Shown here one piece after another: positions 15,888 to 62,310 of a stretch of 64,000 nt of DNA. The notes beneath the pieces are model-generated. The model did no database searches. It was given only the letters and a program-made list of their open reading frames with translations, and had not been told where the DNA came from. A program made the position numbers and the translations under genes. Positions within the stretch are counted from its first letter, which is position 1; the number at the start of each line of letters is the position of its first letter. The stretch spans positions 2,895-66,894 of the forward strand of contig JAPLXG010000006.1 of the NCBI GenBank assembly GCA_026396175.1, in the 5' to 3' direction. This stretch comes from Candidatus Moraniibacteriota bacterium. GTDB taxonomy: Bacteria > Patescibacteriota > Minisyncoccia > Moranbacterales > UBA2206.

Positions 15888-16060
15888 TGTTATCCTGAGC
15901 GAAGTCTGTTTCGTTAAGCCGGCGAACGGACGCAGTCGAAGCCTGTCTGCCGGTAGGCAGGGATCTGCCAACCACTATCACAAACTTTCTGTGATATAGC
16001 AAGACTTACGATAACCCATAGCAGATTCTTCGACTCCACTGCGTTACGCTCAGAATGACA
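15888..16060. repeat. Family A MITE-like palindromic element with nested CTGCCGGTAGGCAGG palindrome
   Basis: TGTTATCCTGAGCGAAG ... CGCTCAGAATGACA; internal TATCACA/TGTGATA and CTGCCGGTAGGCAG palindromes. Confidence 0.7.
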
Positions 16061-16104
16061 ATATTTTTTTATCTCAAATTCTCCTCTTATGCTACAATAC
16101 TTTT

Positions 16105-18315
16105 ATGGCAAATATCTTAGAAAATTTAAATCAATCGCAACGCGAGGCGGTGGAAACGACGGAAGGCGCGGTTTTAGTGATTGCTGGCGCCGGATCGGGA
16201 AAAACGCGAGCGTTGACTTTTCGCACTGCCTATTTGATTTGCGAAAAAGGCGTGCGGCCCGGGCAAATTTTGGCGGTAACTTTCACCAATAAGGCGGCCA
16301 AGGAAATGCAAGAGCGGATTGCGCAGCTATTGGCGGACAGTGGTTTCAAAGGAAAGCTACCATTGGTTGGTACATTTCATTCTATTTGTGCTAGAATTCT
16401 CCGCTCAGAGATTGGCAAGTTGGGTTTTGAAAGCAATTTTAACATCTTCGATGCGCAGGATCAGCAGAGTTTGGTGAAAAAAACGATGAAAGAATTGGGC
16501 GTTGATCCGACGCAATTTCGTCCACAAAGTATTCTCGGTGCCATTTCTAAGGCCAAAAATGAACTAATTGATGCAAAAATGTTTCAAGAAAGAGTCGGTG
16601 GCTATTGGGAAGAAATTGTCTCGAAAGTCTACGTCGCCTATCAGGAACGGCTCAAAAAGAATAACGCGCTGGATTTTGATGACATCTTAATGTTACTCGT
16701 TCAAATTTTCCGCACTTTTCCAGAAGTGCTCGAGAAATATCAAAACATCTTTCGCTATATTATGGTGGACGAATATCAAGATACCAATCATGCGCAGTAT
16801 ATGCTCATTAAGATGCTAGCTGATAAGCACAAAAACATTTGCGTCGTCGGGGACGACTGGCAAGGGATTTATTCTTGGCGCGGAGCCAATATCCAAAACA
16901 TTTTGGATTTTGAAAAAGACTATCCAGCCGCGAAGGTTGTGAAATTGGAACAAAATTATCGCTCCACTCAGCAAATCTTGGACGCGGCTTATGGTGTGAT
17001 TTCCAAAAATATCAATCGCAAAGATAAGAAAATATGGACGGAGAATAAAACGGGACATCTCTTGGCTTCCTATGAAGCCGATGATGAGAGCGATGAAGCG
17101 CAGTTTATTGTTTCGGAGGTAATTAGTTTAAGAAATAAGGGTGTAAAACTCAATAACATCGTTGTGCTTTATAGGACCAATGCCCAGTCGCGGATCATTG
17201 AAGAAGCGCTACTTGGCGATTCCATCCCATATCGGATTATTGGTGGATTGAAATTCTACCAAAGAAAAGAAATCAAAGATATTATTGCCTATTTGCGTTT
17301 GATTGAGAATTTTAATGACGAAATTTCTTTGGAGCGGATCATAAACGAACCGAAGAGGGGGATTGGTGATAAGACGGTGGAAAAGTGGGTTATGGCTGCC
17401 AAAGAGGCTAGCTTGAGCCTGATTGATGCCGGCTCTAAAATTTCCAATTTCCAATTTCCAACCTTGCCTACCGGCAGGCAGGTTTCCAATCAAATTCAAA
17501 TTTCAAATGACAAGATTAGTAAATTAAGAGCGGAGAGCATTATAAAGTTTTGCGATTTTATTAAGCGGATGAGTGAGGTGAGAAATAAGCTGACATTGGC
17601 GGATTTTGTTCAGAAAGTTTTTTCCGAAAGTGGCTACGAGCGGCAGTTGCTTGATGGAACAGATGAGGGGCAGATGCGGCAAGAAAATGTGCGGGAACTC
17701 GTCACTGTTGCCAAAAAATACGACGCTTTTAAGGATGGTGAGGGTTTGCGACTGTTCCTGGAAGAAGTGGCGCTTGTGGCGGACACGGACAACATCGATC
17801 AGTCCAGCGAAGCCGTGCATCTAATGACACTGCACAGTGCTAAGGGTTTAGAATTTCAATATGTGTTTATTATCGGTCTAGAAGAAGGCATCTTGCCGCA
17901 TTCGCGCAGTATGCTTAGTGAAACTGAAATGGAAGAAGAGCGGCGGCTGATGTATGTGGGAATCACGCGTGCCAAGCAAAAAGTTTATCTGCTTTTCACC
18001 AAGATGCGCACAATTTTTGGTTCGACCCAAATTAATGCGCCTTCAAGATTTCTTGATGATATTCCCGCGGAGTTGATTGAAAATGCTGAAAACTCAATCA
18101 TAAATGCTTGCGTGGAAAAGTATGCTACCGCCAGAAAAAAAACTATTCTGACGGAAATGAAAACAAGCTACAAAGGCGGAGAAAGAATTAGTCACGAAAA
18201 ATTTGGCGAAGGACTGGTAATTTCTTCGCAAGGCGATATTATTACTGTGGCTTTTAAGAAAGTGGGTCTGAAAAAACTTTCCAGCTCTTTGGCGCCGATT
18301 CGGAAAATAGAATAA
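16105..18315 (+). CDS. pcrA: ATP-dependent DNA helicase PcrA/UvrD
   Basis: Walker A AGAGSGKTR and UvrD helicase motifs; in-frame insertion (..FQFPTLPTGRQVSNQIQISNDKI..) built from the CTACCGGCAGGCAGG palindrome flanked by AAATTTCAAAT-type repeats at ~17440-17525. Confidence 0.9.
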   Translation: MANILENLNQSQREAVETTEGAVLVIAGAGSGKTRALTFRTAYLICEKGVRPGQILAVTFTNKAAKEMQERIAQLLADSGFKGKLPLVGTFHSICARILRSEIGKLGFESNFNIFDAQDQQSLVKKTMKELGVDPTQFRPQSILGAISKAKNELIDAKMFQERVGGYWEEIVSKVYVAYQERLKKNNALDFDDILMLLVQIFRTFPEVLEKYQNIFRYIMVDEYQDTNHAQYMLIKMLADKHKNICVVGDDWQGIYSWRGANIQNILDFEKDYPAAKVVKLEQNYRSTQQILDAAYGVISKNINRKDKKIWTENKTGHLLASYEADDESDEAQFIVSEVISLRNKGVKLNNIVVLYRTNAQSRIIEEALLGDSIPYRIIGGLKFYQRKEIKDIIAYLRLIENFNDEISLERIINEPKRGIGDKTVEKWVMAAKEASLSLIDAGSKISNFQFPTLPTGRQVSNQIQISNDKISKLRAESIIKFCDFIKRMSEVRNKLTLADFVQKVFSESGYERQLLDGTDEGQMRQENVRELVTVAKKYDAFKDGEGLRLFLEEVALVADTDNIDQSSEAVHLMTLHSAKGLEFQYVFIIGLEEGILPHSRSMLSETEMEEERRLMYVGITRAKQKVYLLFTKMRTIFGSTQINAPSRFLDDIPAELIENAENSIINACVEKYATARKKTILTEMKTSYKGGERISHEKFGEGLVISSQGDIITVAFKKVGLKKLSSSLAPIRKIE
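17464..17482. repeat. Family D 20-bp palindrome CCTGCCTGCCGGTAGGCAGG inside pcrA (also at 15944-15963, 29049-29068, 30894-30913, 38871-38892, 62257-62276)
   Basis: Exact or near-exact copies; the in-CDS copies (pcrA, cca, nfo) are all read in the LP(A/T)GRQ frame. Confidence 0.75.
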
Positions 18316-18478
18316 TTTTTTTCTTCGCAGGTTCAGGCGTCCTCGCCTGAACCATCTATTTCTGGTAAAACTAACTAACCAGCCTGTGTTATGAATTTTT
18401 TCATTTATTCTTATTATCTGGCCCAACCAGAAATATGAGATTCAATCGAGACGATTGAACCTGCATCTCTATACAAAA

Positions 18479-18517
18479 CAAAAAACGTCCTATAGTTCAC
18501 GCCGGACGTTTTTTGTA
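18479..18517. terminator. bidirectional rho-independent terminator between pcrA and the LysM-CHAP gene
   Basis: AAAAAACGTCC-loop-GGACGTTTTTTGT. Confidence 0.75.
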
Positions 18518-18533
18518 TTTATATCAAAAGAGA

Positions 18534-19676
18534 TTATCGAATAAACCCTTTAATCACCCGGCTACTCTTAGCAACCACGCGAGTGGATTTTTTAGCCCAA
18601 CCCTTGTAATTCATTTCGGAAACAGTGAATGAGTCCGCGCTGACGCTTTCTACGAGCGCCACATGCCCCCACCATGATTCCGAGGTAACCATAACTGCTC
18701 CGACAGTGGGAGTTCTGCTTGTGGCATAGCCGGCCGCCTTAGCATGATAGAGCCAGGTTCCGGCGTTTCCACCCCAAGGAATATTTCTTTTTTGGGCGAC
18801 ATACCAGGTGCAATAGCCATAAGGAAAGCCGTGACTTGATTTTCCGCCGCTGAGTGTTTTTCCAGCTGAATCGAATGATTCATAGGGGCGAGGAACAATC
18901 CCCAGTCCAGTCACTCCGGGCGTCGTCGTTGGCTTGGGTGCCGGAATATCTTTTTGCCCATCTGGAATGGTAATGATATCTCCTGCCTTAACTTCACCAT
19001 CAAGGTGGAGAGAATTAAAGGCAATAATCTTATCCTTATCCGCTTTAAATTGTTTGGCAATACTATTAATATCATCGCCACTTTTAACCGTATAGGTCAC
19101 GCCGGAAACAGGCAGAATAAATATTTTATCGCCAGGCATAATGGAATTGACATCATCAATTGCATTAGCCCAAAGGAGTGTATTGATACTAACATGGTTG
19201 GCGGAGGCAATGGAACCCATCGTATCTCCATTTTTAACTTCATAAATCACCACACCACCATCTTCTTCTGGATCTTTGAGCACAGGACTGTTTTCGCAAA
19301 CCAATGAATTTCCTTGCATAAGCACAGGATCTGGTTTGCCGTCATCCGCCTTTAATGTGGGATCAGGAACGGCGGTTGCTTCAAGCAGTGGCGCAAGTGC
19401 CAGAGACGTTTTTTTATTGGAAGTTAAAAACATCTTGTCCTCCAGAGGACTGGCATAATTATCACTATTGCCAGATCCGAGATAGCCAAAAAGGAATCCA
19501 CTGGAATTTTGTCCGGCAGAAAGATTAGTAGCAGAAACAAGTAGCGCGCTGGAAGCTACCACAACAAAAGAGGAATAATTCCTAAAGATGTGTAAAAGCT
19601 TCACCGTCCGGCGCTTTTTGATAAAAACCACGACCTTTTTTTGGAACAAAAAAAGGCTAGTGATAAAGTCCTTCAA
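18534..19676 (-). CDS. peptidoglycan hydrolase: 2x LysM plus C-terminal CHAP domain
   Basis: LysM repeats (YEVKNGDTMGSIA, YTVKSGDDINSIA); CHAP Cys/His (CTWYVA ... GHVALVE). Confidence 0.7.
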   Translation of the reverse strand: MKDFITSLFLFQKKVVVFIKKRRTVKLLHIFRNYSSFVVVASSALLVSATNLSAGQNSSGFLFGYLGSGNSDNYASPLEDKMFLTSNKKTSLALAPLLEATAVPDPTLKADDGKPDPVLMQGNSLVCENSPVLKDPEEDGGVVIYEVKNGDTMGSIASANHVSINTLLWANAIDDVNSIMPGDKIFILPVSGVTYTVKSGDDINSIAKQFKADKDKIIAFNSLHLDGEVKAGDIITIPDGQKDIPAPKPTTTPGVTGLGIVPRPYESFDSAGKTLSGGKSSHGFPYGYCTWYVAQKRNIPWGGNAGTWLYHAKAAGYATSRTPTVGAVMVTSESWWGHVALVESVSADSFTVSEMNYKGWAKKSTRVVAKSSRVIKGFIR

Positions 19677-19883
19677 TTTTTTCTTAGAGGGGATAATTTG
19701 AGAAGTTTTTTGGATTAGATTACTAATACAATTAACCTTTCCTTTAGTTTTAGCAAGAATCTCGCCTGTTCATGGTCTGATTTTCTAGCGAACCTTGGCA
19801 CTAAAACCCTAATTTTTACCTGCTAGACAGTATAGTCTAAGCAGGGATTTTTGTCAATTGAGTTTTTGGTGTAGAATTAGTCT

Positions 19884-21291: not shown

Positions 21292-22047
21292 TTAATCCGT
21301 TATAATCGCTTTCCACATAAATTCAAAAAGTTCTTTGTGCAGGCGGATGATGTTTTTGTTTTCAATTACCATGGCGATAACCGGTGGGGTGGTTTGGTGG
21401 ATCAGGATTTTATTTGGCGCAATAGTGATGGAAGCTGAGAGCTGCATATCTTTTGGAAAAATCTTGATTTGCATATTATAGATCGCTTCGTTTTGTTTAT
21501 ATTTTCTGGCAATTTCTGAATCCTGGAGCAATAGGCGATTGTTGAGTTTTTTCTGCGCGCGCTTTTCCACGAAATTTTCAAAAAATCTTTGGTCTTCCGA
21601 CATCCATTTGGCGGAATCGCTGATCACCCAATAATCCTCTCCGAATTTCACTTCAGAAAGCAGATCTAAATGGATATTTTTCACCGCTTCCACGCCTTCA
21701 TAGTATTTAATGAGACTACTTCCACCTTCGGCGCTGTAGAGCGCCTTGAAATCAACCAGTGATTCTTGCAGCTCCTTTTTCTTATTATCCATTATTCTTT
21801 CCAATTTTTCCGGATTTTCCGCGGAAAAAAAGGTTTTCCAGCCGATCTGTTCGACTTTCATGAGGCCCAATTGCTTTAATGCTTCAACCGCTGAATAGAC
21901 AGTGGTTCTTTTGACTTCCGAGGATTTGGAAATGGCCAAAATAGTGGTTTTACCCAGAGATAGCGCGTTCAAATAGACTAGCGCTTCATTGTCGCTAAGT
22001 CCCAAATTAAGCAGTACTTTATATAGTTTATTGTCCATATTGGGCAT
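21292..22047 (-). CDS. TrmB-family HTH transcriptional regulator
   Basis: N-terminal wHTH (LSDNEALVYLNALSLG ... KRTTVYSAVEAL) plus TrmB C-terminal domain; paralog at 58294-59040. Confidence 0.7.
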   Translation of the reverse strand: MPNMDNKLYKVLLNLGLSDNEALVYLNALSLGKTTILAISKSSEVKRTTVYSAVEALKQLGLMKVEQIGWKTFFSAENPEKLERIMDNKKKELQESLVDFKALYSAEGGSSLIKYYEGVEAVKNIHLDLLSEVKFGEDYWVISDSAKWMSEDQRFFENFVEKRAQKKLNNRLLLQDSEIARKYKQNEAIYNMQIKIFPKDMQLSASITIAPNKILIHQTTPPVIAMVIENKNIIRLHKELFEFMWKAIITD

Positions 22048-25163: not shown

Positions 25164-25303
25164 AACGTTATTCGCTTCACTGTTATTCGCTTCGCGAACC
25201 GGCGCTACGAATGCCGGACATACGAATTGAATCAATACTTTTAAATTCTATACAATAGGGATTACTCTTTTGTAAATTTTCTAGCTTGCTTTAAAAAATA
25301 GAT

Positions 25304-25449: not shown

Positions 25450-27405
25450 TTAGCTTGTTTTTACTTCAATTGTCTCGGTTTTTTCTTCTGCAGTTTCTGT
25501 GACTGCTTCAACCGGTTCTACTATAACAGCTTCACCCCCGCCTGCAACGCTATGCGTAGCATTGCGGGCAGGCTCGTTCTTCTTTGCTGGCGCAATCCCC
25601 ATAATTTCATTAAACTCAGCTTGTTCAATTGTTTCTTTTTCTAAAAGGACATTGGAGATTTTATCCAGCAGATCCTTTTTGTCAATAAGAATTTTTTCCG
25701 CCACCTTATAGGCATCAGCGATGAACTTAGTGACTTGATTGTCGATTTCTCTGGCGGTTTCTTCGGAATAATTTTTTTCTTCGTGCATTTCTTTGCCCAA
25801 AAAGACCATTTCTTCTTTATGTCCGAAAGTGCGTGGTCCCAAATCGCTCATACCATAGCGCGTGACCAGGTTTCTGGCAATCGCTGTTGCTCGCTCCAGG
25901 TCATTGGAAGCGCCAGTAGTGATGTCGCCAAAAGTCAACCTTTCACTGAGATATCCGCCCAAAAAGACGGAAAGCTCGTCGATGAAATAATTGCGTGAGT
26001 GGAGCGTCTTATCTTTAGTTGGCGCATTTAAGGTATATCCTCCAGCATTACCACGAGAAATGATCGAGATTTTTTGCACTGGATCGGCGTGTTTCAGGGT
26101 GGATGCGATAAGGGCGTGACCAGCTTCGTGGTAAGCGATGATTTTCTTTTCATCTTCGTCAATACGACGGCTTTTTCTTTCCGGCCCAAGAATAACCTTT
26201 TCGATTGATTCAGCGAGTTCGTTCATTCCGATAGTTTTTTTGCCACGTCTTGCGGAAAGAATCGCGGCTTCATTGAGCAAGTTGGCAAGATCAGCTCCCG
26301 AAAAGCCTGGTGTTCTTTGAGCAATCACGCGCAAATCAACATCTTTGACCAATGGTTTATTTTTGGAATGAATTTTGAGGATTGCTGAGCGTTCTTCGAT
26401 ATCAGGCAAATCCATTACCACTCGGCGATCAAATCGGCCCGGGCGAAGCAGGGCCGGGTCAAGTACATCGGGACGATTGGTTGCGGCAATCACGATTACA
26501 TTAGTATTAGTATCGAAACCATCCATCTCCACTAGAATTTGATTGAGAGTTTGTTCTCGTTCGTCGTGTCCTCCGCCCAGTCCCGCTCCGCGGTGTCGTC
26601 CAACTGCGTCAATCTCATCAATAAAAACAATGGCGGGCGAATTTTTCTTGGCTTGCTTGAAAAGATCACGCACACGCGATGCGCCAACTCCCACGAACAT
26701 TTCCACGAATTCTGAGCCAGAAATATTGAAAAATGGCACATTCGCCTCCCCTGCTACCGCTTTGGCGATTAGAGTCTTACCTGTTCCTGGAGAACCCAAA
26801 AGTAAAACGCCTTTGGGAATTTTTGCGCCAAGACTCAAGAATTTCTTAGGAGTTTTGAGAAATTCCACAATTTCATAGAGTTCTTCCTTGGCTTCCTTGG
26901 CTCCCGCAACATCATTGAAAACGACACGATTTTTTTTATCCTTCGGGTCAGAAACGCGCGCCTTGGACATTCCAAAGGACAACGCTTGATTATTCCCTCT
27001 TTGCGCTTGGCGCAACATAAACCAAATAAATCCGGCAATCAGCAGGAACGGCAAAAGGAAAGGCAAAATTGCTCCCAGCCAAAGACTGCTTGAGCTTTCT
27101 CCTTTAACTACAATGTTAACGCTATCAAGTTTTGCCGGGTCTACGCCGTAATTTTTGAAAGTTTCAGTTAGTCCCGCCTCTTTTTCTTTCAGTGACTTTT
27201 CGATAGTTCCGTCAGTCATAATAACATTCAAATCGCTATCAGTAACATCAATTTCCTTAACCTTTTGGTCATTAATTTGCGCGACCAGTGTGGAAAGGGA
27301 AATATCGGCCGGTTTCTTTTCTGGATTGTTGAGAAGAATCAGAATGCCCGAGAGGAAAACAAAGAAAAATAAGACATAGCTAATATTGCGCAAGAGATTT
27401 TTCAT
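25450..27405 (-). CDS. ftsH: ATP-dependent zinc metalloprotease FtsH
   Basis: Walker A GSPGTGKT; HEAGHA zinc site; C-terminal tail carries the palindrome-derived [13 protein letters not shown]. Confidence 0.9.
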
Positions 27406-28984: not shown

Positions 28985-29093
28985 AAGTTTTGAAAAATAA
29001 ATTTATTGTGTAGTTTTCCAAAATATTGATTCGCATGTCCCCCATTCGCCTGCCTGCCGGTAGGCAGGTAGTGGGGGTTCGCGAAGCGAATAA

Positions 29094-30512
29094 CTATTCT
29101 TTCACTTCTGTTTCTTTTTTCTCCTTCTTAGCTTTCTTCACTTTTTTCTCAGCTGGTTTTTCTGATTTTTCTGTGTATTTCTGTTTTTCTTCCGTGTCAT
29201 TCTGTGGTTCAACTTTTTCCCCGCCTGCAACGCTTTGCGTAGCAATGCGGGCAGGTTTCTTGGCTTTCTTTTCCTTCACTTCCTTTGCTGGCTTTTCTTT
29301 GTCAGAAATTAAAGTTAGTCCCATGCGGTGTTCTCTTGGTTCGATAGAAAGAATTTTCCAGCTATAGTCTTCTCCGGTCTTGATCAGATCATTGATATTT
29401 TTCCCCGGATGCGTATCAAGCATTTCGCTGATGTGCGCGAGGCCGTGGATGTCATTATCAAGATAAACAAAAGCACCGAAGTGATTAATTTTGTGCACTT
29501 TTCCAGTCACGACGTCCCCCACTTTATATTTCTTCGTCGCTTCGCTCCAGGGATCAGCTTGCAAGGCGCGAATGGAAAGAGAAATCTTATCATTATCAAT
29601 ACCAATAATTTTTGCTTCCACTTTATCCCCTACTTTCACGATTGTGCGTGGGTTTTCAATCAGTTGCCATGCCAGTTCTGAGATGTGGACAAGTCCTTCC
29701 ACTTTTTCTCTGTCATTTATTTGACCATCTTCATTCAATGGAGAGAATTTCACGAAAGCACCAAAGTCAACCACGCCACTGATTTCTCCGGAGATCACGT
29801 CGCCTACTCTAAAATTAGAAATAGTTTCCTTGTCGCGATCACTCTGTGCGGCTTTTTCGCTGGCAATCAACTTCTCTGCTTCACGGTCAATGTCCAAAAC
29901 ACAAACTTCCAATTCTTTGCCAACCAATTTTTTGAGCAGATTAAGAATCTTATTTTTGTCACCATCTTCCACGCGAGGATAATTCTTGCTAGAAAGTTGT
30001 GACACCGGCAAAAATCCAGCGATACCATTGATTTCAATCAGCAGTCCGCCCTTGTTGGCGCTGATAACTTTTGTCTTGACTTTGTCGCCAGCATCTCGTT
30101 TCTTTTCAATATCCTCCCAAGCTTTTTCATAGGACGCTTCACGAATGGAAAGTTCGATGTAGCCCTCTTCATTTTCCAAATCAGTCACAGTGGCTGAAAC
30201 CTTATCGCCCAATTTTAATTTTCCAGAACCCATACCATCTTTGATTTCTTTGCCCAAAACCAGCCCTGTTCCGAATGGTCCAAGGTCAAGATAGATTTCG
30301 CTAGAAGAAACTTCGAGAACCGTTCCGATAACGGTGTCCCCAACTGAGGGAAATTCAATCGGATTATCCAAAAGCAATTGTTCCATAAAAGAAGGAGCTT
30401 TTTCCTCTGGCACAACTTTGTCGTCAGTTTTTTTGACTGGAGCTGGCGCAGCAGCTTTTTCATCGCTCAACTTGTCCACTTCAGTCGCCAACTTAGAGAG
30501 TATATCGTTCAT
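29094..30512 (-). CDS. rpsA: 30S ribosomal protein S1
   Basis: Four S1 domains; Lys-rich C-terminal tail carries the palindrome-derived ARIATQSVAGGEK. Confidence 0.85.
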   Translation of the reverse strand: MNDILSKLATEVDKLSDEKAAAPAPVKKTDDKVVPEEKAPSFMEQLLLDNPIEFPSVGDTVIGTVLEVSSSEIYLDLGPFGTGLVLGKEIKDGMGSGKLKLGDKVSATVTDLENEEGYIELSIREASYEKAWEDIEKKRDAGDKVKTKVISANKGGLLIEINGIAGFLPVSQLSSKNYPRVEDGDKNKILNLLKKLVGKELEVCVLDIDREAEKLIASEKAAQSDRDKETISNFRVGDVISGEISGVVDFGAFVKFSPLNEDGQINDREKVEGLVHISELAWQLIENPRTIVKVGDKVEAKIIGIDNDKISLSIRALQADPWSEATKKYKVGDVVTGKVHKINHFGAFVYLDNDIHGLAHISEMLDTHPGKNINDLIKTGEDYSWKILSIEPREHRMGLTLISDKEKPAKEVKEKKAKKPARIATQSVAGGEKVEPQNDTEEKQKYTEKSEKPAEKKVKKAKKEKKETEVKE

Positions 30513-30574: not shown

Positions 30575-30735
30575 AAATATCCTCCTCTCCCTTAGGGAGA
30601 GGATGTCCGAAGGACAGGTGAGGGAAAGGGCTTTGTGCTACTGGAGAGCTATATTCTTCGTAGTATGTCCACTCCCTCATCCGGCCTTTGGCCACCTTCT
30701 CCCTAATGGAGAAGGGGAAATAAATTATAAAAAAA
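30575..30735. repeat. Family B composite palindromic repeat
   Basis: CTCTCCCTTAGGGAGAGGATGTCCGAAGGACAGGTGAGGGAAAGGG ... CCCTCATCCGGCCTTTGGCCACCTTCTCCCTAATGGAGAAGGGG. Confidence 0.7.
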
Positions 30736-30930
30736 TTTCCAAACAGTTGTGGAAATTATTAAGAGTGTGCCAATGAAGGCTCGAAAGTCAGGAATTAAAG
30801 CATCCCCTATTCAATTTTTCTTAATAATTAACGTAAATTGAGTATACTCCACCTTTTTTGTTTTGGCAAGTGATTGTGCCCTCAGTAGGAATCCCTGCCT
30901 GCCGGCAGGCAGGGAACCTTCTGGATTGTG

Positions 30931-31002
30931 TGCTCTCGTCAAGAATCGAACTTGAATCTAAGGCTTAGGAGTCCCTTGTTCTATCCGTTGAACTACGAGA
31001 GC
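30931..31002 (-). tRNA. tRNA-Arg (anticodon CCU)
   Basis: Acceptor GCTCTCG/CGAGAGC; T-arm TCAAGTTCGATTCTTGA; loop CTCCTAA (one 31-39 mismatch). Confidence 0.7.
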
Positions 31003-31220: not shown

Positions 31221-33278
31221 ATGGCAAATTTAACTGAAAAATCGCAAGAAATCTGGGAAAAAATCAAAAAACAGCCAAAAGACATTTGGTTTTTCTATTT
31301 GTTTTTATTGACTTTTACGCTTGGGGTAAGAAAAGTAATATTATACTTTCCCTTGAAAGGTGCCTTTAACGAATACACCGGCGCATACGTTTATGCTTCT
31401 GATATATTCTTGTGTCTTACGATCATAGCCTGGGTCGTATCTATATTATACAACAAAATAGCATTATCGTCAAGTAACAGCGAAGCTGTTTCTGAAGTTA
31501 TCCACAGGATGGATGGTGGCGAAAAAGAGGAATTTAAAGTTAGCCATAAGTTATCCACAGGAAAATTTGCTTATTTTAAAGCATTTTTTTCCAGGATGTG
31601 GAAAATGTTCCACGTGGAACAATTTTACAATCAGAATTCAAGAAAATGTTCCACCCTCCTGCGCCAAGGCTTCGGCGGGCAAGCGTGGAACATTTTGAGT
31701 GGATTGGGTACTATTCCCCTGCTTTTGGTCATTTGGTCATTCATATCGGTCTTTTGGTCAGAAAATCAAGTAATTAGTGTTTGTAGATCTATTAAGTTTT
31801 TTGAACTGTATCTTCTGTTTATTTATATATCCATCAGATTCGTGCCATACTGCTTACTCAATTGTTCCACGTGGAACAATCTGCAATCTGGAAATGTTCC
31901 ACCCTCCTGCGCCGAGGCTTCGGCGGGCAGGCGTGGAACATTTTCAAATACAGAGGATGGTGGTGATGCTAAAATGTTCCACGTGGAACAATTTAGCTAC
32001 GTTTTGTCGAAAATGGCTAAATATTTCCGCGCAATCTTGTTGGGGCTGGTAGTAATTGCGCTGTTTGACCACTATTTGTGGGATATTTGGCAAGGTCAGG
32101 TCTTGTTTTGGCTGGTTTGTGGCGTTTTGGCAGGAGTTAGTTTTGGCGAGCAGTTTAATCTGAAAAAATGTTCCACGTGGAACATTTTCGAGAGTACTAT
32201 CAGTGAAATTGTTCCACGTGGAACAATTTATGCGGGGCGTCTGTTTTTCGGCATAATTATGCTTCTTGGTGTGACACAGTCTCTGATCGGAATTGCTCAA
32301 TTTATTGTTCAGCACTCAATCGGGCTATTTTGGCTCAAAGAAAGCCTAATTGGGCAAAGTATTCCCGGAGTGGCAAAGATTATCGCTAATCATCATGTTC
32401 TTATCCGTTCCTATGGCCTCTTTCCTCATCCAAATATCCTGGGGGGATTTTTGTTTTTTTCTATCATGATTACGCTTCTGTATAGAAAAATGTTCCACCC
32501 CGAAGAATCTGAAAATGTTCCACGTGGAACATTTTCAAATCACGGGACAGGCGCGGAACATACCGAGGAGAAAAATAATGTGAATTGTTCCACGTGGAAC
32601 AATTTTAGGCAAGTATGGAAAAATGTTCCACGTGGAACATTTTGGATATTACTAAAAGAAAAAGTGCTTATTATGGGCAATGTTATTAATTTAATATTGC
32701 TGATTCAGATATTTGGAATTCTTCTTTCCTTTTCTAAGTCAGCCGTTCTTACCTTACTCATTGCGCTTACTTATATAAATGTTCCACGTGGAACATTTTG
32801 GGGTAAGCGTGGAAAATCGTTTCACCCCGAAAAATCTGAAATTGTTCCACGTGGAACAATTTCAGATCACGGGGCAGGCGTGGAGCGATTTAGGATATTA
32901 CTTGGTTTGGGATTGGCCGTATTGGCAGGACTGTTTTTTCTTAGAGTCGAATTTTATGCCTTATTTATGAAGTCGCTTGCAGAAAGAGGGTTGTATTTGT
33001 CTATCTCCGAGCGGATAATTACAGATAATCCGATTATTGGGGTTGGCACTGGCCAGTTCATCGTGGCCGCAGAGAGGTTATTCCCAAATCTTGAGATCTG
33101 GCAATATCAGCCAGTGCATAATGTTTTTCTTTTAATTTGGTCAGAATGGGGGATTGTCGGGTTGGTTTTGTTTATTGTGTTTTTGTGGAAATTGTTCCAC
33201 GTGGAACAATTCTGTGAAAAGCCTCTTCTCCCTCAGGGAGAGGACCTGCCCGAAATGCAAATCGTTGCAGGCGGGTGA
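31221..33278 (+). CDS. O-antigen ligase/Wzy_C-like polytopic membrane protein interrupted by at least 14 in-frame 20-24 bp palindromes
   Basis: Wzy_C-like block PVHNVFLLIWSEWGIVGL and GVGTGQF; the ORF stays open through every ATGTTCCACGTGGAACAT copy, read as MFHVEQF / CSTWNNF / NVPRGTF depending on phase. Confidence 0.6.
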   Translation: MANLTEKSQEIWEKIKKQPKDIWFFYLFLLTFTLGVRKVILYFPLKGAFNEYTGAYVYASDIFLCLTIIAWVVSILYNKIALSSSNSEAVSEVIHRMDGGEKEEFKVSHKLSTGKFAYFKAFFSRMWKMFHVEQFYNQNSRKCSTLLRQGFGGQAWNILSGLGTIPLLLVIWSFISVFWSENQVISVCRSIKFFELYLLFIYISIRFVPYCLLNCSTWNNLQSGNVPPSCAEASAGRRGTFSNTEDGGDAKMFHVEQFSYVLSKMAKYFRAILLGLVVIALFDHYLWDIWQGQVLFWLVCGVLAGVSFGEQFNLKKCSTWNIFESTISEIVPRGTIYAGRLFFGIIMLLGVTQSLIGIAQFIVQHSIGLFWLKESLIGQSIPGVAKIIANHHVLIRSYGLFPHPNILGGFLFFSIMITLLYRKMFHPEESENVPRGTFSNHGTGAEHTEEKNNVNCSTWNNFRQVWKNVPRGTFWILLKEKVLIMGNVINLILLIQIFGILLSFSKSAVLTLLIALTYINVPRGTFWGKRGKSFHPEKSEIVPRGTISDHGAGVERFRILLGLGLAVLAGLFFLRVEFYALFMKSLAERGLYLSISERIITDNPIIGVGTGQFIVAAERLFPNLEIWQYQPVHNVFLLIWSEWGIVGLVLFIVFLWKLFHVEQFCEKPLLPQGEDLPEMQIVAGG
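31600..33210. repeat. Family G: at least 14 copies of the perfect palindrome (A)ATGTTCCACGTGGAACAT(T) / ATTGTTCCACGTGGAACAAT, some nested in a larger palindrome TGTTCCACCCCGAA..AATCTGAAA[core]TTTCA..ATCACGGGGCAGGCGTGGA
   Basis: Copies at ~31603, 31640-31695 (split), 31860, 31890-31945 (split), 31973, 32165, 32205, 32490-32570 (nested), 32583, 32615, 32777, 32808-32890 (nested), 33185. Confidence 0.8.
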
Positions 33279-38372: not shown

Positions 38373-40004
38373 ATGTCGAGGGAAAATTCGCTATTTCAGA
38401 AATTTTTTGCTAGAATGGTGAATATGAAAAAGGAAAAACTGGCTAAATTTGATATTCCTGCCCATATTCTTTTGGTGATGGAAAAGCTGGAAGAGGCGGG
38501 ATTTGAGGCATATGTCGTGGGCGGTTGCGTGCGGGATTTGCTAATGGGGCTCATACCTAAGGATTGGGATATCGCGACGAATGCTAAGCCGGAAGATGTG
38601 CAAAAAATATTTCCTGATTCTGTTTATGAAAATGAATTTGGGACGGTGGGGATCAAGATCAGAAATCAGAAGTCAGTGAACAGCGAACAGGAAACCGAAG
38701 AAAAAGAAATAACAGAAGTGGTTGAGGTGACAACCTATCGCATTGAATCAACATATTCCGATAAAAGGCATCCGGATGCGGTGAAGTTCGCGAAAACTTT
38801 GGAGGAAGATTTGTCTAGGCGTGATTTTACGATCAATGCGTTGGCGCTTGGGGTCAGTGATCAGAAATCCTTGCCTACCGGCAGGCAGGCAGTGAACAGT
38901 AAACAGAAAAAGATTGAAAAAATAGATGGTACTAAGTTTGAGCTAATAGATTTGTTTTCTGGACAGGAGGATTTGGAAAATAAATTAATTCGAGCGGTGG
39001 GGGATGCTAACGAAAGATTCAACGAAGACGCGCTGCGGATGATGCGGGCGATTCGGTTTTCGGTGACGCTGGATTTTGTGATTGAGGAAAAAACATTTGT
39101 GGCGATTCAAAAAAATGCGTCCAATTTAAAATTTATTTCGCCAGAAAGAATTCGAGATGAATTTTCGAAAATTATTTCGTCGCCAAGTCCGGCGAAAGGC
39201 ATTGAACGACTGCAAGAAACAGGAATTTTGAAAATAATTTTGCCAGAAATTGAAAGTGGAATTGGTGTGATGCAAAGTCATCATCATTACCATGGACCAT
39301 ATAATACAGTGTACAAACATTTAGTGGCATCTTTGGAAAAATGTCCGTCGCCAAAATTAGAAGTGCGTTTGGCGTCATTGCTTCACGACGTGGGAAAGCC
39401 AAAATCAAAAAGAGGGGAAGGCGAAAATGCGACATTCTATAACCACGAATATATCGGAGAGCGGATGACGAAAAATATATTGGAACGTCTGCGTTTTTCG
39501 CGGAGCGTGATTGATAAGGTGACGCTTTTGGTGCGAAATCATATGTTCTATTATAACGTTGACGAAGTGGGTGAAGCGGGTGTGCGGCGTGTGGTGCAAA
39601 AAATCGGGCTGGAAAATATCGGTGACCTAATTGACGTGCGGATTGCTGATCGTCTTGGTAGTGGCGTGCCGAAAGCGGTGCCCTATAAACTGCGTCATTT
39701 TCAGTTTATGGTGGAAAAAGTTTCCCACGACGCGATTTCTGTAAAACAGCTAAAACTGAACGGTAATGATTTGATGGAAGAACTCAATGTTGCTCCCGGA
39801 CCAAAAATCGGTGCGATTTTGGCCGTTTTGCTTTCGCAAGTGATTGATGATCCAGCACTTAATGACAAGAAAAAACTATTGGCATTGGCAAAAGAGTTGG
39901 CCAAAAGTAAGGTAGAGGATTTACGCAAGATGGCGGAGGAGAAAATTAAAAAGGAGCAAAAAAAAGAAGAAGAATTGATAAAGAAAAAACATAAGGTCAG
40001 TTAA
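38373..40004 (+). CDS. cca: CCA-adding tRNA nucleotidyltransferase with HD domain
   Basis: GGCVRDLLMG..DWD pol-beta motif, HD domain; in-frame palindrome-derived insert SLPTGRQAVNSKQ; start may be a downstream Met. Confidence 0.8.
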   Translation: MSRENSLFQKFFARMVNMKKEKLAKFDIPAHILLVMEKLEEAGFEAYVVGGCVRDLLMGLIPKDWDIATNAKPEDVQKIFPDSVYENEFGTVGIKIRNQKSVNSEQETEEKEITEVVEVTTYRIESTYSDKRHPDAVKFAKTLEEDLSRRDFTINALALGVSDQKSLPTGRQAVNSKQKKIEKIDGTKFELIDLFSGQEDLENKLIRAVGDANERFNEDALRMMRAIRFSVTLDFVIEEKTFVAIQKNASNLKFISPERIRDEFSKIISSPSPAKGIERLQETGILKIILPEIESGIGVMQSHHHYHGPYNTVYKHLVASLEKCPSPKLEVRLASLLHDVGKPKSKRGEGENATFYNHEYIGERMTKNILERLRFSRSVIDKVTLLVRNHMFYYNVDEVGEAGVRRVVQKIGLENIGDLIDVRIADRLGSGVPKAVPYKLRHFQFMVEKVSHDAISVKQLKLNGNDLMEELNVAPGPKIGAILAVLLSQVIDDPALNDKKKLLALAKELAKSKVEDLRKMAEEKIKKEQKKEEELIKKKHKVS

Positions 40005-50603: not shown

Positions 50604-50676
50604 GGATCCTTAGCTCAATGGCTAGAGCACCTCGTTTACACCGAGGGGGTTATAGGTTCGAGTCCTATAGGGTCCA
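50604..50676 (+). tRNA. tRNA-Val (anticodon UAC)
   Basis: D-arm GCTCAATGGCTAGAGC, loop TTTACAC. Confidence 0.85.
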
Positions 50677-50680
50677 CAGT

Positions 50681-51003
50681 GCCGAGTTAGCTCAGTGGTA
50701 GAGCAGAGGACTGGTTTTCGGTCCGTTCCAGAGTAATTTGGAAATGAAAATTGGATGAATTCGAGGAAGCCTAAAACTAATTTTATTAGAAATGGTAATC
50801 TCGAGCTAAGCTTCAAAGGGCTTAAGGTTTTGAAGAAAGTGTAGAGACTAGCAAGTGAGTCCCAACAATAATCTTGCGCTAGCGTCCAATATCCTATTTT
50901 GCTAGTTAGTAAAAGGATAATGAAATAGTCCGATCCTTGGGGAAACTCAAGAAAAATAACAAGGAAAATCCTTGTGTCCCCGGTTCAATCCCGGGACTCG
51001 GCA
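50681..51003 (+). tRNA. tRNA-Phe (anticodon GAA) interrupted by a ~251-nt group I intron between U33 and G34
   Basis: 5' exon 50681-50712 (GCCGAGT acceptor .. GAGGA-CU), 3' exon 50964-51003 (GAAAA-UCCUU .. ACUCGGC-A); the joined sequence matches the canonical tRNA-Phe pattern. Confidence 0.75.
50713..50963 (+). ncRNA. group I intron (tRNA anticodon-loop type)
   Basis: P1: exon GGACU pairs intron GGUCC (50720-50724) with U.G at the splice site; R-like GUAGAGACUAGCAAG (~50841-50855) and S-like AAAUAGUCCGAUC (~50923-50935) give P7 GACUA/UAGUC; terminal G at 50963. Confidence 0.7.
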
Positions 51004-58289: not shown

Positions 58290-58293
58290 ATGT

Positions 58294-59040
58294 TTATTTT
58301 CTATTATCCAACATTTTCCAGTTAAGTTCAAAGATGGTTTTTAGGGTGGTGTAAATCTTTTCGCTTTCAATGATAAGACCTAGACCTTCTTTGAAGGACA
58401 TAATGCCGATTTTTCTTTTGCCGTAGAGGTTTATCTCGACCTCTAGAAATAATCCAGTTGAATCATATAGGCGAGTTTCACGCAAATATTTCTTGTCCTC
58501 AGCTTGAATTTTCTGGACAACGCCGAGATTTTGTCCGATAGCACGCATCCAAATTTTTTTCTCAATTCTTTTTTTGAGATAATAATCCCACATATAGCCT
58601 TCGTCGAAATATTTGAAAACATCAGTTGTGCCCCACATCAGGATTTCTTGGTTGGGGTAATTCAAGGTGTCTTGGTAGACATTTTTAATTCCCTCGCTAC
58701 CTTCAAAATACTTCACATCCGGTTTTTTGTCGATTCCGCTGGCCATTGAGAGCAGTTGTGGAAGAATTCCTTCAAGCACGGTTTTCTTTTCTTCCAGCTG
58801 ACTTTCGAGTATTCTGGGATCTTCAGCATAATAGAGCGTGCGTTTTTTTCTTTTAGTTGTTCCAATGAGACCTTTAGCTTTCAACGATTCAATTACATCA
58901 TAAACAGTGGTGCGTTTGATCTTGGATTTGCGGGAAATCTGTTCCACTGTTGTTTCGCCCAACTCCAAAAGCTCGACATAAACATCAGCTTCACGCTCTG
59001 AGAGGTTAAGTTTTTCCAATTGTTTTTTTAGAATAGCCAT
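58294..59040 (-). CDS. TrmB-family HTH transcriptional regulator (second paralog)
   Basis: wHTH (EREADVYVELLELG ... KRTTVYDVIESL) plus TrmB C-terminal domain; start at ATG ~59040. Confidence 0.7.
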   Translation of the reverse strand: MAILKKQLEKLNLSEREADVYVELLELGETTVEQISRKSKIKRTTVYDVIESLKAKGLIGTTKRKKRTLYYAEDPRILESQLEEKKTVLEGILPQLLSMASGIDKKPDVKYFEGSEGIKNVYQDTLNYPNQEILMWGTTDVFKYFDEGYMWDYYLKKRIEKKIWMRAIGQNLGVVQKIQAEDKKYLRETRLYDSTGLFLEVEINLYGKRKIGIMSFKEGLGLIIESEKIYTTLKTIFELNWKMLDNRK

Positions 59041-59276
59041 AATAAATAAAAGATAGTTTGTCGACAAAAGGGTCGTTTTGATTAGACTAGCATAGCGTTT
59101 AAATTTTGTCTATACATAGGCCTAAAATAGTTTCATGGATGGTTAATCGGTGTATTTTAGAAAAATATGACATAAAAATATTTAAATAGTATAGTCTGTA
59201 GTTTCACAGATATGGAAGGTTGTTTAACAATTTGATGAACTAAAATGCGCTTAGTGGCGCGAAAGAGAGGTGACGT

Positions 59277-59519
59277 ATGGGCATAAGGGTAAGAGGTAAA
59301 AAAAGACTGGTTGTTTTTAGAAAAATGCTCCGTCGGATTTGTACGCTTGAAAAGCAAATTCTTGCCTCAGCCCCATCTGACAGTTGGGATATTGGCGAGA
59401 GCAGCTTGTCTGATAAAATTCGACAAATGGAAAAGGCAGTTCTGGCGGAAAATCGCTGGGACACTTGGCATGTCGGTGGGGTGCGGGAACATCTTGTTCT
59501 GCCAGCAAGAGGGAAATAA
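59277..59519 (+). CDS. hypothetical small protein (weak call)
   Basis: 80-aa ORF with GAGAGG RBS; no similarity recognised. Confidence 0.25.
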   Translation: MGIRVRGKKRLVVFRKMLRRICTLEKQILASAPSDSWDIGESSLSDKIRQMEKAVLAENRWDTWHVGGVREHLVLPARGK

Positions 59520-59578
59520 TTTCTCTAAAATGAGGCTGTCGGCAAATGTCGGTGGCCTCAAATATTTAAGGAGGGAAG

Positions 59579-60814: not shown

Positions 60815-60851
60815 TTTTTAGTGGATACATTGGTATTGCGTACAGCCTAAT

Positions 60852-60887
60852 AGCAGGAAGCTTTTAATAAGACCTTCCTGCTTTTTT
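60852..60887 (+). terminator. rho-independent terminator of 59579-60814; convergent partner terminator at 60895-60930 on the minus strand
   Basis: AGCAGGAAG..CTTCCTGCTTTTTT and CCAGTC AAAACGG GACTGG. Confidence 0.65.
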
Positions 60888-60929
60888 ATTTACAATAAAA
60901 AAACCAGTCAAAACGGGACTGGCACCGGG

Positions 60930-61430
60930 TTATTTCTCCTTTTTTGAATCACTTGCATAAGGACAGACGACACAAGAAAAAGAAAACTTGTTCTTGCTCG
61001 CAAAGATAATGCAATCTTCTAGAAATACGCAGGATGTATTTCTATGTGCACTTATCTCGCTAGCATATGGTGCGCGAGATAATTTCATCAAGATGTATTC
61101 GTTTCCTGATGCATCAATGCGGGTGTATCTTTTCAATAATTTAAGCACGTCCGCTCGTTGCTCATTTTCCAAATTTCCTACGCTTTTTTTCTGATTTGGA
61201 AATGAGGATGTTTTTTGGGGATTGGATTTTTGCAATTCCCAGTTGGTTATGCTCCAATGTAGCCAGACATTGAGGGTTACTTTGTAGGTTAATTTTATCC
61301 ATAACCTTAGGGCCAGGTCACTCTTTTCAAGTGCTATTCTTTCTGAATCGGTTAGCCAAATGCGTGGATTTCTTGTGTTAACTACCGCAATCTTCTGATT
61401 TTTCAAAAGATGGTTCTTGCTATAATCCAT
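60930..61430 (-). CDS. hypothetical protein
   Basis: 166-aa ORF, convergent with 59579-60814, own terminator. Confidence 0.4.
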   Translation of the reverse strand: MDYSKNHLLKNQKIAVVNTRNPRIWLTDSERIALEKSDLALRLWIKLTYKVTLNVWLHWSITNWELQKSNPQKTSSFPNQKKSVGNLENEQRADVLKLLKRYTRIDASGNEYILMKLSRAPYASEISAHRNTSCVFLEDCIIFASKNKFSFSCVVCPYASDSKKEK

Positions 61431-61461
61431 TTTTCATCACCCCCTTATTTTTTAGGAACTA

Positions 61462-62310
61462 TTATTTATTATCGCGAAAACTTTTTAATAGCTCAATATC
61501 TTTTTCTACCGCGTCATGCTCAGTTTCCAAAATCATATCAATATTATTCTTTTCGGCAAATGCGACAATATTTTGAAATGCAACTTTGCCAATTTTTCCA
61601 TCACCAATATGTTCATGGCGATCTCGCTTGGAATCAAAATCAGTCAAACTGTCGTTGGCGTGGATTAGTTTAATATTTTTTAGTCCCAATTCTTGATCAA
61701 TTCTTGTGATAGTTTTTTTGAAATCTCGCCAGTCATAGCCGGAAGCAAAAGAGTGCTGAGTGTCGAGGCAAATTCCGGCGATAGCGCTGTTGCCTACTCC
61801 ATCGATAATTGTTTTCAAGTCAAGAAGTGAGCTTCCGATGATTTCTCCGGCGCCGGCGCTGTTTTCCAAAAGTAGTTTAGTTTTTCCAGTATAATTTTCC
61901 AAAGTTTTTTGGAGCATCTCGATTACTTTTTGGATTGACTCGTCATGGGTCATGCCTTTGGCGGATCCAAGGTGGGTCATCACATATTTCGCGCCAATGA
62001 GACTTCCTCGTTCCAATTCGTCGCGGACGACACTGACTGAACCGTAGCGGATGCGATTTTCCAGGGAAGCGAAATTAATGTAGTAAGGCGTATGGATGTA
62101 GGTATCTAGTATTTGGTATCTAGTATTTAGTATTTTAAATTCACTGACAATTTCCTTTGTCAGTTCCGGTGCCTTTCCACCACGCGGTGAGCGAGTGAAA
62201 ATCTGCATTATTTCGCAACCTAAAACGCTTGCACGCTCAGGTGCATTTTGGATTCCGTGCCTACCGGCAGGCAAGCCGCCAGCGATTGAGATGTGAGCAC
62301 CGATGTTCAT
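61462..62310 (-). CDS. nfo: endonuclease IV (AP endonuclease family 2)
   Basis: Canonical Nfo; two in-frame repeat inserts (GGLPAGRHGIQ from the CCGGCAGGCA palindrome; NTRYQILDTY from the GGTATTTGGTAT repeat). Confidence 0.85.
   Translation of the reverse strand: MNIGAHISIAGGLPAGRHGIQNAPERASVLGCEIMQIFTRSPRGGKAPELTKEIVSEFKILNTRYQILDTYIHTPYYINFASLENRIRYGSVSVVRDELERGSLIGAKYVMTHLGSAKGMTHDESIQKVIEMLQKTLENYTGKTKLLLENSAGAGEIIGSSLLDLKTIIDGVGNSAIAGICLDTQHSFASGYDWRDFKKTITRIDQELGLKNIKLIHANDSLTDFDSKRDRHEHIGDGKIGKVAFQNIVAFAEKNNIDMILETEHDAVEKDIELLKSFRDNK

Follow-up and report, generated by a model that had tools for sequence, protein, structure and literature searches.

Can a palindrome of 20 nucleotides (nt) that encodes nothing behave as mobile DNA? 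The question is raised by a 64,000-nt stretch of the genome of a Candidatus Moraniibacteriota bacterium (assembly GCA_026396175.1, contig JAPLXG010000006.1, positions 2,895 to 66,894), referred to here as the window, which holds housekeeping genes, eleven tRNAs, a Xer-like tyrosine recombinase and many other small repeats. An original prediction, made from the letters of the window, had claimed six copies of one such palindrome, three of them in spacers or nested in other repeats and three inside the genes pcrA, cca and nfo. We use the working name E for this 20-nt palindrome, CCTGCCTGCCGG(C/T)AGGCAGG, and its 21-nt variants. The basic unit is 20 bp, CC-TGCCTGCCGGCAGGCA-GG, with a centre GCCGGC that often reads GCCGGT on one strand. 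A pattern search of the window with CCTGCCTGCCGGTAGGCAGG at up to three mismatches recovered the same six loci (15942-15961, 17463-17482, 29049-29068, 30894-30913, 38870-38889 and 62256-62275), at coordinates that differ by 1-3 nt from those first given, and none of 100 dinucleotide-preserving shuffles of the window yielded any match (0 expected by chance). The copy at 29049 is the sole exact match to the 20-mer quoted at first; the copy at 30894 is a perfect GCCGGC palindrome. As single-stranded DNA, a perfect E is predicted to form an 8-bp stem with a CCGG loop at -8 kcal/mol.

Based upon comparisons of filled and empty sites between relatives, the ends and flanks of the inserts, and the distribution of E across bacteria and viruses, the best overall explanation is that E belongs to the non-autonomous dispersed repeats, is very small and spreads by copy-and-insert, to which we assign a probability of roughly 0.7. 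That E is a mobile micro-repeat of the copy-and-insert kind is, in our judgment, very likely.

Insertions in three housekeeping genes

Pfam bears out the proposed identities of the three host genes, a UvrD/PcrA helicase (16105-18315, plus strand), a CCA-adding enzyme (38373-40004, plus strand) and an Nfo-type apurinic/apyrimidinic endonuclease (61462-62310, minus strand). Hundreds of orthologues of the CCA, Nfo and PcrA proteins were found in Moranbacteria and other Parcubacteria, which places the window in the candidate phyla radiation; below, L-numbers denote retrieved contigs or loci and P-numbers protein orthologues. The genic features are as follows.

17441 to 17508, plus strand: tandem heptamer array in pcrA, the insertion target (TTTCCAA three times, E, TTTCCAA TCAAATT CAAATTT...)
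17462 to 17482, plus strand: 21-nt E copy CCTTGCCTACCGGCAGGCAGG, in frame in pcrA (TLPTGRQ), exactly between two TTTCCAA heptamers
38855 to 38906, plus strand: heptamer array in cca (CAGTGAT CAGAAAT, insert, CAGTGAA CAGTAAA CAG)
38869 to 38889, plus strand: 21-nt E copy CCTTGCCTACCGGCAGGCAGG, in frame in cca (LPTGRQA), between CAGNNNN-type heptamers
62255 to 62275, minus strand: 21-nt E copy CTTGCCTGCCGGTAGGCACGG, in frame in nfo (GLPAGRH), in the beta1-alpha1 loop

The genic element had been taken to be 20 bp long, yet in pcrA, cca and nfo alike the insert measures 21 nt. An insert of 20 bp would break the frame; the genic copies form a subfamily of 21 nt, in which an extra base lies between the outer CC/GG and the 16-nt core. 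The pcrA and cca 21-mers are identical, with an extra T between the outer CC and the core TGCCTACCGGCAGGCA; the extra base of the nfo copy differs. Further one-base variants exist, among them CCATGCC... and ...CCGGACAGG.

Orthologues with empty sites define the inserts to the base. In the pcrA orthologue of L182, whose protein is 92% identical, TTTCCAA is followed directly by TTTCCAA with no insert, whereas L183 carries the identical 21 nt. The cca orthologue of L121 (84% identical protein) retains the heptamers CAGTGAA-CAGGAAT/CAGTAAG and lacks exactly the 21 nt, and that of L123 has neither heptamers nor palindrome. Most nfo orthologues read SIAGGIQ at this place and are 7 residues shorter, with L178 as the empty site. 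At the DNA level the nfo insert is again 21 nt, and it is flanked by a 3-nt CGG direct repeat, so that the junction is ambiguous by 3 nt; the native target, GCCGGAGG, resembles the centre-right part of E. The motif xLPAGR(Q/H) occurs at the same codon in six of about 115 Nfo orthologues, and the nearest neighbours of each lack it. These inserts are of at least two kinds that differ structurally (GGC TTG CCT... in the window vs CGC CTG CCT... in L179-L181). Repeated insertion into one permissive loop, precise loss, and allelic exchange between populations are each possible sources of this scattered pattern.

The inserted residues fall in surface loops in all three proteins, as had been proposed for checking. 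An AlphaFold2 model of Nfo has a mean pLDDT of 93, and the insert (residues 11-17), between strand 3-7 and helix 20-29, is the sole segment below 50. The sequences of solved Endo IV, PcrA and CCA enzymes show alignment gaps opposite the inserted residues; the pcrA insert region forms a 20-residue excess over the solved PcrA 1PJR, and residues 160-188 of the cca product have almost no counterpart in solved CCA enzymes. With most of the sequences drawn from metagenome assemblies, one might ask if the genic copies are sequencing or assembly artefacts, a chimera objection that had been raised at the outset. The pcrA insert recurs in L183, an independent assembly of the Joint Genome Institute (JGI), and the nfo insert recurs in P0122, also from an independent assembly. 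The inserts, moreover, keep frame and sit in loops, and E is present in eight cultured isolates (see below). The chance of an artefact is practically negligible.

In other lineages, these variable loops are occupied by further repeat-encoded peptides, in the CCA and PcrA families alike. In the CCA orthologues P0003, P0007 and P0061, for example, the loops at window cca residues ~96-112 and 160-188 contain peptides such as …ASAKAIAGKQ…PPSLKLRRTSRRA… and …HAELVSAS…KPACRQA…RQVQND. The variable loops of CCA are general landing sites for several palindromic repeat families. Within the window cca gene, an in-frame block of 21 nt at 38667-38687, made of the three heptamers CAGAAGT CAGTGAA CAGCGAA, is missing from two orthologues; thus heptamer arrays come and go in genes by multiples of three units. 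The closest PcrA orthologue (93% identical), at 7025-10324 of L183, reaches 1,099 residues due to an intein (PF14890); the window pcrA is free of inteins.

The two lengths of E are used differently. Counting as an open reading frame (ORF) any stop-free stretch of at least 600 nt, which is not a verified gene, we found exact 20-mers in ORFs in 20% of cases (n=82, sampled genomes), compared with 76% of random positions in the same loci. The 21-mer CCTGCCTGCCGGYAGGCAAGG lay in such ORFs in 59% of cases (n=79, metagenomes), compared with 71% of random positions, and the two occupancies differ with p = 2e-7. A 20-nt insert shifts the reading frame, so the 20-nt form survives almost only outside genes. 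These data show a purifying filter that sorts 20-mers out of genes and lets 21-mers into loops. Because 21 nt are three heptamer lengths, the register of an array and the reading frame are both preserved. Every genic copy had been predicted to use the open LP(A/T)GRQ frame. This is so for the three window copies, which share one codon phase (TLPTGRQV, SLPTGRQA, GLPAGRHG); elsewhere the frame is a preference rather than a rule. Among 47 metagenome 21-mers in ORFs, 25 read LPxGRQ, 11 CLPxG(R/K), nine LA(Y/C)RQA and two PACRQA, where uniform use would give 15.7, 15.7, 7.8 and 7.8 (p = 0.009). One plausible cause of the preference is selection that disfavours cysteine and the TAG of the T-variant. 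In the viral contig L174, ten head-to-tail 21-mers CCATGCCTACCGGCAGGCAGG at 3915-4124 lie in a 627-nt stop-free stretch that reads (PCLPAGR)x10; the 21-nt form can thus also expand as a tandem array.

Non-coding hosts, junctions and distribution

Outside genes, E was found in small repeats, some of them resembling miniature inverted-repeat transposable elements (MITEs), and next to a tRNA gene.

15942 to 15961, no strand: 20-nt E copy CCTGTCTGCCGGTAGGCAGG with one mismatch, nested in the MITE-like family A element at about 15887-16068, just upstream of pcrA
25186 to 25227, plus strand: E-less paralogue of the family H host repeat, with its arms joined directly (CTA/CGAAT)
29049 to 29068, no strand: exact 20-nt E copy in the loop of the family H hairpin repeat 29029-29091, gmk-rpsA spacer
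30672 to 30723, plus strand: MITE-like module GGCCAC/CTTCTCCC (family D14), empty in the window
30894 to 30913, no strand: perfect palindrome CCTGCCTGCCGGCAGGCAGG, 16 nt past the 3' end of tRNA-Arg(CCU)

The proposed nesting of E in families A and H is confirmed by paralogues that lack it. Four family A paralogues (9210, 25290, 42862 and 47828) are without exactly those 20 nt between GTCGAAG and GATCTGC, and one of family H is likewise empty. The orthologous gmk-rpsA spacer of L183 lacks the whole structure of family H plus E, a composite that folds at -18.1 kcal/mol (z = -4.3) in the window. Conversely, the family D14 module that is empty in the window is filled at its L183 orthologue (position 19621), where a 20-nt E sits at the GGCCAC/CTTCTCCC junction. 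The insert measures exactly 20 nt in these non-coding hosts, be it a MITE, a hairpin repeat or the loop of another palindrome. Such filled/empty differences between close relatives show that the insertions are younger than their hosts, and the relative age order once read from nesting holds in this form: presence and absence among relatives place the hosts first and E later. The copy at 30894 is kept at the orthologous place in L183, as a perfect palindrome, and is therefore an older insertion. It had been placed upstream of tRNA-Arg, but that gene (30930-31002) is on the minus strand, and E lies 3' of it. The lineage is dense in E, as judged by six copies per 64 kb in the window and six per 20 kb in the related Moranbacteria contig L183. 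The family A element that bears E also has a second extra segment of about 21 nt (~15908-15934), missing from the four paralogues; this is an imperfect palindrome, again GCCGGC-centred (…CGTTAAGCCGGCGAACG…), and may be another small-palindrome family.

None of the six filled/empty comparisons (pcrA, cca, nfo, the D14 orthologue, family H and family A) revealed a target-site duplication, neither the duplicated dinucleotide that had been suggested for checking nor any other. Over more than 300 sites whose flanks are unrelated, the ends of E do not differ by a single base. The flanks of 205 E sites are nearly all unrelated to one another, and a master copy as the source of E was rejected on this ground. 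One might instead see in E a minimal MITE, consisting of two abutted 10-bp terminal inverted repeats moved by a DDE transposase: E is exactly a 2 x 10 bp inverted repeat with a 16-nt core of the form TG...CA, and many DDE transposon ends start with TG and finish with CA. Against this stand the six comparisons without target duplication, the lack of a transposase nearby, and 1.5 Mb of E loci in which no longer element is bounded by half-sites, the apparent 'half-sites' being decayed full copies. A minimal MITE is scarcely credible.

Certain features of the flanks recur across phyla. Once E is taken out, the flanks join into a period-7 repeat at 17.9% of 21-mer sites, compared with 0.7% of controls (odds ratio 32, p = 2e-21), and at 7.9% of 20-mer sites, compared with 0.27%; periods 3-6 and 8-11 at 21-mer sites were not enriched over controls. 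The heptamers vary by genome (TTTCCAA, CAGTGAA, TTGAGAA, TCCGAAA, TTCATAA and others), and E lies at the junction between units, usually as ...A-E-T..., in either orientation. At 4.2% of sites, compared with 0.5% of controls, the flanks pair as a stem of at least 7 bp, which puts E in the loop of a hairpin that was there before it, as at 29049. In eight cases E is nested in another copy of E (L023, L030, L036, L068, L074, L215, L217 and L288), and each of them would fit an insertion at the CC^GG centre. Directly 5' of E, T is found in 7% of cases, and directly 3' of it A in 7-10%, where the background is 28%; the 21-mer flanks have A at -1 in 64% and T at +1 in 60%, and the two positions pair no more often than their marginal frequencies predict. 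The sites of E are not sequence-specific, apart from avoiding T on the 5' side and A on the 3' side, and have a strong bias to DNA able to leave B-form.

Hairpin loops, heptamer arrays and palindrome centres are also places where replication forks stall, which raises an explanation that needs no dedicated enzyme. In replication template switching or short-patch gene conversion, a strand would stall, copy E elsewhere and return. Target duplications and a linked gene would not be expected, and the nfo junction, with its CGG repeat and its target resembling E, fits such a process. Template switching usually leaves ragged ends, however, whereas those of E are constant over hundreds of unrelated flanks, and the junctions in pcrA (TTTCCAA-E-TTTCCAA) and cca (CAGAAAT-E-CAGTGAA) are without microhomology. 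The presence of one 20-mer in nine phyla would still require horizontal transfer or a shared specificity. We consider this route unlikely.

Copies of E turn up far outside the window in genome, metagenome and viral scans, contrary to the refuting case named at the outset, in which they would be confined to it. A scan of one genome per species with the pattern CYTGCCTRCCGGYAGGCARG, in which taxa were assigned by record title, placed E in at least 120 loci of at least nine phyla, and the 21-mer was found in at least 120 metagenome loci; both counts are lower bounds. Among the 120 genome matches listed, 28 belong to the candidate phyla radiation (CPR), 42 to Bacteroidota, four to Ignavibacteriota, nine to Omnitrophota/PVC (Planctomycetes-Verrucomicrobia-Chlamydiae), eight to Planctomycetota, eight to metagenome-assembled genomes (MAGs) titled 'Gammaproteobacteria', ten to delta-type, Bdellovibrio-type or Desulfobacterota genomes, three to Nitrospirota and two to Chloroflexota, with six unclassified. 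The CPR carriers include Parcubacteria, Saccharibacteria, WWE3, Uhrbacteria, Daviesbacteria, Doudnabacteria, Absconditabacterales and others. All eight cultured carriers listed are Bacteroidota (Winogradskyella echinorum, Olivibacter oleidegradans, Flagellimonas yonaguniensis, Terrimonas sp., Longitalea luteola, Flavivirga sp., Thermobacterium salinum and Flavobacteriaceae R38), and the 120 matches listed contain no cyanobacterium, firmicute or actinobacterium. The GC content of the loci spans 0.26-0.72. In IMG/VR, 54 viral stretches carry E, compared with about one expected from a rough guess of the collection's size. No full-length E was found in cultured phages, PLSDB plasmids or 5,426 E. 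coli genomes, where the few matches were short (19-20 nt) or imperfect, with chance-level E-values.

Carriers are multi-copy, as the genome loci hold 5.8 extra copies of E per Mb beyond the one that drew each locus. The commonest variant is GCCGGT, with 60 of about 190 copies; on one strand it retains a G-U/G-T wobble. This wobble form (GCCGGT/ACCGGC) makes up 27 of 47 copies (57%) in Bacteroidota and Ignavibacteriota, compared with nine of 56 (16%) in CPR, Omnitrophota, Planctomycetota and Gammaproteobacteria MAGs (p = 2e-5). Such lineage-specific variant frequencies, together with the identical 21-mers of the window, point to copying from resident source copies.

Constancy of this degree across phyla could also be expected of a functional site, and E might be a protein-binding palindrome or terminator under selection, for example an operator of a ParB- or TrmB-family protein. 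The conserved perfect palindrome after tRNA-Arg in L183 would fit, as would a ParB-family gene within ~350 nt in six of 174 loci and the many TrmB paralogues of these genomes. Yet E sits in frame in housekeeping genes, in itself, in MITEs and in pseudo-tRNA fragments; its sites differ between close relatives, and its position with respect to genes is not fixed; the 30894 hairpin is not followed by a T-run; and the ParB link fails an estimated correction for the gene families examined, while the TrmB paralogues are ordinary diverged regulators. A functional site is highly improbable as an explanation of E.

The ParB-adjacent loci (L003, L078, L102, L141, L160 and L172) come from different phyla and phages, with E upstream or downstream at varied positions. 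This adjacency is suggestive and, after allowing by estimate for the number of gene families examined, not significant. TrmB-family helix-turn-helix proteins of ~250 residues occur several per 20 kb in the window (21292-22047, 58294-59067) and in L121, L122, L123, L178, L180 and L182, and some of their genes lie in segments that differ between relatives, such as the region upstream of cca in L121 and L123, not in the window. We considered these paralogues as a possible insertion-sequence-like gene and rejected them, as they are just 25-50% identical to one another.

Insertion of E into working tRNAs was also considered and set aside: three D-arm cases (L024, L059 and L049) are 5' tRNA fragments beside intact genes. 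The one exception is a viral tRNA-Met in L159, where E (2284-2303) forms an extra long variable arm and ARAGORN still calls the tRNA. In the related viral contigs L126, L146 and L163, E lies beside decayed remains of a tRNA-Met of the L159 type.

How E might be copied and inserted

Since E encodes nothing and no gene travels with it, it would have to be moved in trans; exact ends and the lack of duplication would point to cutting and joining by an enzyme at a hairpin or cruciform, without a staggered break. In such a scheme, copies would be made from a resident source E in each lineage, a trans-acting enzyme would recognise the hairpin or cruciform form, and the copy would be inserted with exact ends at heptamer junctions, in the loops of hairpins or MITEs, or at the centres of other copies of E. 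Candidates would be single-strand transposition of the HUH/Y1 type, as in repetitive extragenic palindromes (REP) and IS200, or another recombinase that leaves no duplication. HUH/Y1 chemistry would be the best precedent and would fit better than staggered-cut DDE transposition; we nevertheless rate this step low because no guide motif of the GTAG/CGTC kind, no strand bias and no gene for a REP-associated tyrosine transposase (RAYT) was seen. A hairpin-specific, trans-acting DNA enzyme as the mover of E is accordingly a doubtful proposition.

Several results weigh against spread by copy-and-insert. No mobilising enzyme was found. The asymmetric copies in the window, which represents a single replichore, are oriented two against three, without bias. 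The flank tables contain no conserved tetranucleotide of the kind used by HUH transposases. Double changes at stem pair 8-13 number 2-3 compared with ~5 expected, in a sample whose search pattern fixes most stem positions, so with no compensatory excess at this pair selection for the hairpin is not demonstrated. At the nfo site, finally, either gain or precise loss may lie behind the filled alleles, which are scattered over the orthologue tree.

The search for a mobiliser extended from the window to the neighbourhoods of E elsewhere. The 64-kb window contains no transposase, HUH protein or reverse transcriptase, and no RAYT (Y1 HUH) gene was seen there or in 8-kb neighbourhoods of E loci. All-against-all clustering of 3,576 ORFs from 174 E loci gave no recurrent neighbour gene; the leading clusters consisted of structural genes of phages, sensor kinases, ABC transporters and ParB. 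E is covered by no Rfam family, the 20-mer and its peptides had no match in a full-text literature search, and a search for palindromes in CPR coding regions returned nothing relevant.

An RNA route, in which a transcribed E hairpin is reverse-transcribed and inserted, was reportedly proposed for cyanobacterial small dispersed repeats by Elhai and colleagues in 2008. It would account for the wobble kept by the commonest variant, many copies of E are transcribed as parts of genes, and the relative L123 carries an RVT_1 gene. The wobble strand is inconsistent with respect to the host gene, however (sense ACCGGC in pcrA and cca, GCCGGT in nfo), a compensatory excess was not seen, the window has no reverse transcriptase, and L123, the very contig with such a gene, has no copy of E in 21 kb. 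We regard the RNA route as distinctly unlikely.

Returning to spread by copy-and-insert, a bolder version is that E is the trace of an undescribed, widespread system, borne by hosts or phages, that in at least nine bacterial phyla places an unchanging hairpin of 20-21 nt in hairpin loops and heptamer arrays, with the heptamers (21 = 3 x 7) part of the process and not a passive target. We put this forward tentatively, as a minority possibility.

Other features of the window deserve mention. A 16-bp palindrome, TGTTCCACGTGGAACA, occurs in eleven irregularly spaced copies at 31606-33208, inside an ORF (31221-33278) with a C-terminal Wzy_C (O-antigen ligase-like) domain, and is presumably one symmetric base pair off the ParB-binding parS consensus, which we take to be TGTTNCACGTGAAACA. 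The cluster is conserved in the orthologous gene (nine copies in L121, seven in L123), and some of the L121 and L123 copies hold nested hairpin inserts at their CAC^GTG centre. A 47-nt palindromic repeat (…CCCGCCTGCAxCGCTxTGCGxAGCAxTGCGGGCAGG) at 13560-13606, 25526-25572 and 29209-29255 has as its hosts three housekeeping genes on the minus strand (PNPase, an ORF syntenic with the FtsH gene of L182 and L183, and ribosomal protein S1); it looks like another coding-sequence repeat family. A group I intron (Rfam RF00028, 77.7 bits) lies at 50703-50952, in a tRNA-dense region, 26 nt after tRNA-Val(UAC) at 50604-50677.

Comparison with known repeat systems

The closest parallel by description is the set of small dispersed repeats SDR1-8 of Nostoc punctiforme, which Elhai and colleagues are said to have described in 2008 as hairpin-forming sequences of 21-27 nt, precisely inserted by a mechanism unknown. 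They reportedly occur in heptamer arrays and mini-transposons, nest in copies of themselves, form hairpins with compensatory mutations and belong to one cyanobacterial subgroup. E resembles them in size class (20-21 vs 21-27 nt), in its hairpin, in being dispersed and multi-copy with precise insertion and no encoded protein, in its heptamer-array and mini-transposon (MITE) hosts, and in nesting in its own copies. The likeness drawn here is one of described behaviour. The SDRs are, moreover, said to be confined to their cyanobacterial subgroup, whereas E occurs in at least nine non-cyanobacterial phyla and in viral contigs. The plasmid collection, which we take to include Nostoc plasmids, held no full-length E, and this argues weakly against E being an SDR. 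The question of how so small a hairpin is copied was reportedly posed for the SDRs in 2008, and we know of no later solution, in part because of their apparent restriction to one clade. SDR5 inserts precisely inside HIP1 (PMC4390886), and the SDRs have been counted among the unexplained short palindromic repeats (PMC3116915). The present data document two forms of E, a non-coding one of 20 nt and a coding one of 21 nt.

REP/REPIN sequences are palindromes of ~20-40 nt in hundreds of copies, non-autonomous and mobilised by a RAYT of the HUH Y1 type (PMC3116915, PMC3733652). Like E, they are palindromes on a scale of ~20 nt, are non-autonomous and leave no target duplication, and they are thought to move as single-strand hairpins. 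REP are extragenic, however, whereas E lies inside genes, as in three window copies and the majority of 21-mers; a conserved head, GTAG or CGTC, stands outside the stem of REP and is missing from E; and REP occur mostly as inverted doublets flanking a RAYT gene, whereas copies of E are singletons at irregular spacing.

Rickettsia palindromic elements (RPE), which Ogata and colleagues reportedly described in 2000 and 2002, are said to be 100-150 bp long and restricted to Rickettsia. They reportedly share with E an in-frame position in housekeeping protein genes, tolerated in surface loops, and the lack of an obvious mobilising gene, and they are found in RNA genes as well. E, at 20-21 bp, is five to seven times shorter and spans phyla.

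MITEs, including Nezha of cyanobacteria, are likewise non-autonomous dispersed repeats with inverted-repeat symmetry (PMC3733652). They measure 70-300 bp and have terminal inverted repeats and a target duplication, in contrast to E, which has neither duplication nor internal sequence; MITE-like elements serve as hosts of nested E. Tandem heptamers are known as the short tandemly repeated repetitive (STRR) sequences of heterocystous cyanobacteria and as the TAACTGA repeats of Beggiatoaceae, Cyanobacteria and Bacteroidetes, whose patchy distribution suggests horizontal transfer, with no mechanism known (PMC4679880). Being tandem direct repeats and not palindromes, these arrays, with a similarly patchy distribution, are the favoured genomic setting of E and its target or partner, not the element itself.

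For the genomes that carry it, E has practical consequences: it extends essential enzymes by 7-residue LPxGRQ loops, can lead gene callers and binning based on repeats astray, and offers a fine-scale marker of strain divergence for CPR populations. A repeat that crosses phyla also opens the way to phylogenetic profiling for a co-occurring gene, and the cultured carriers permit trap experiments. Set beside the systems above, E stands out in that its sequence hardly varies over phages and at least nine phyla, that it comes in paired 20- and 21-nt forms, and that its link to heptamers is quantitatively clear; neither the spread over phyla nor the heptamer link was part of the original prediction. 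It is among the smallest and most widespread of mobile-looking DNA elements, and thus tests the lower size limit of mobile DNA; if an undescribed system does lie behind it, E would be the smallest known mobile element that spreads horizontally.

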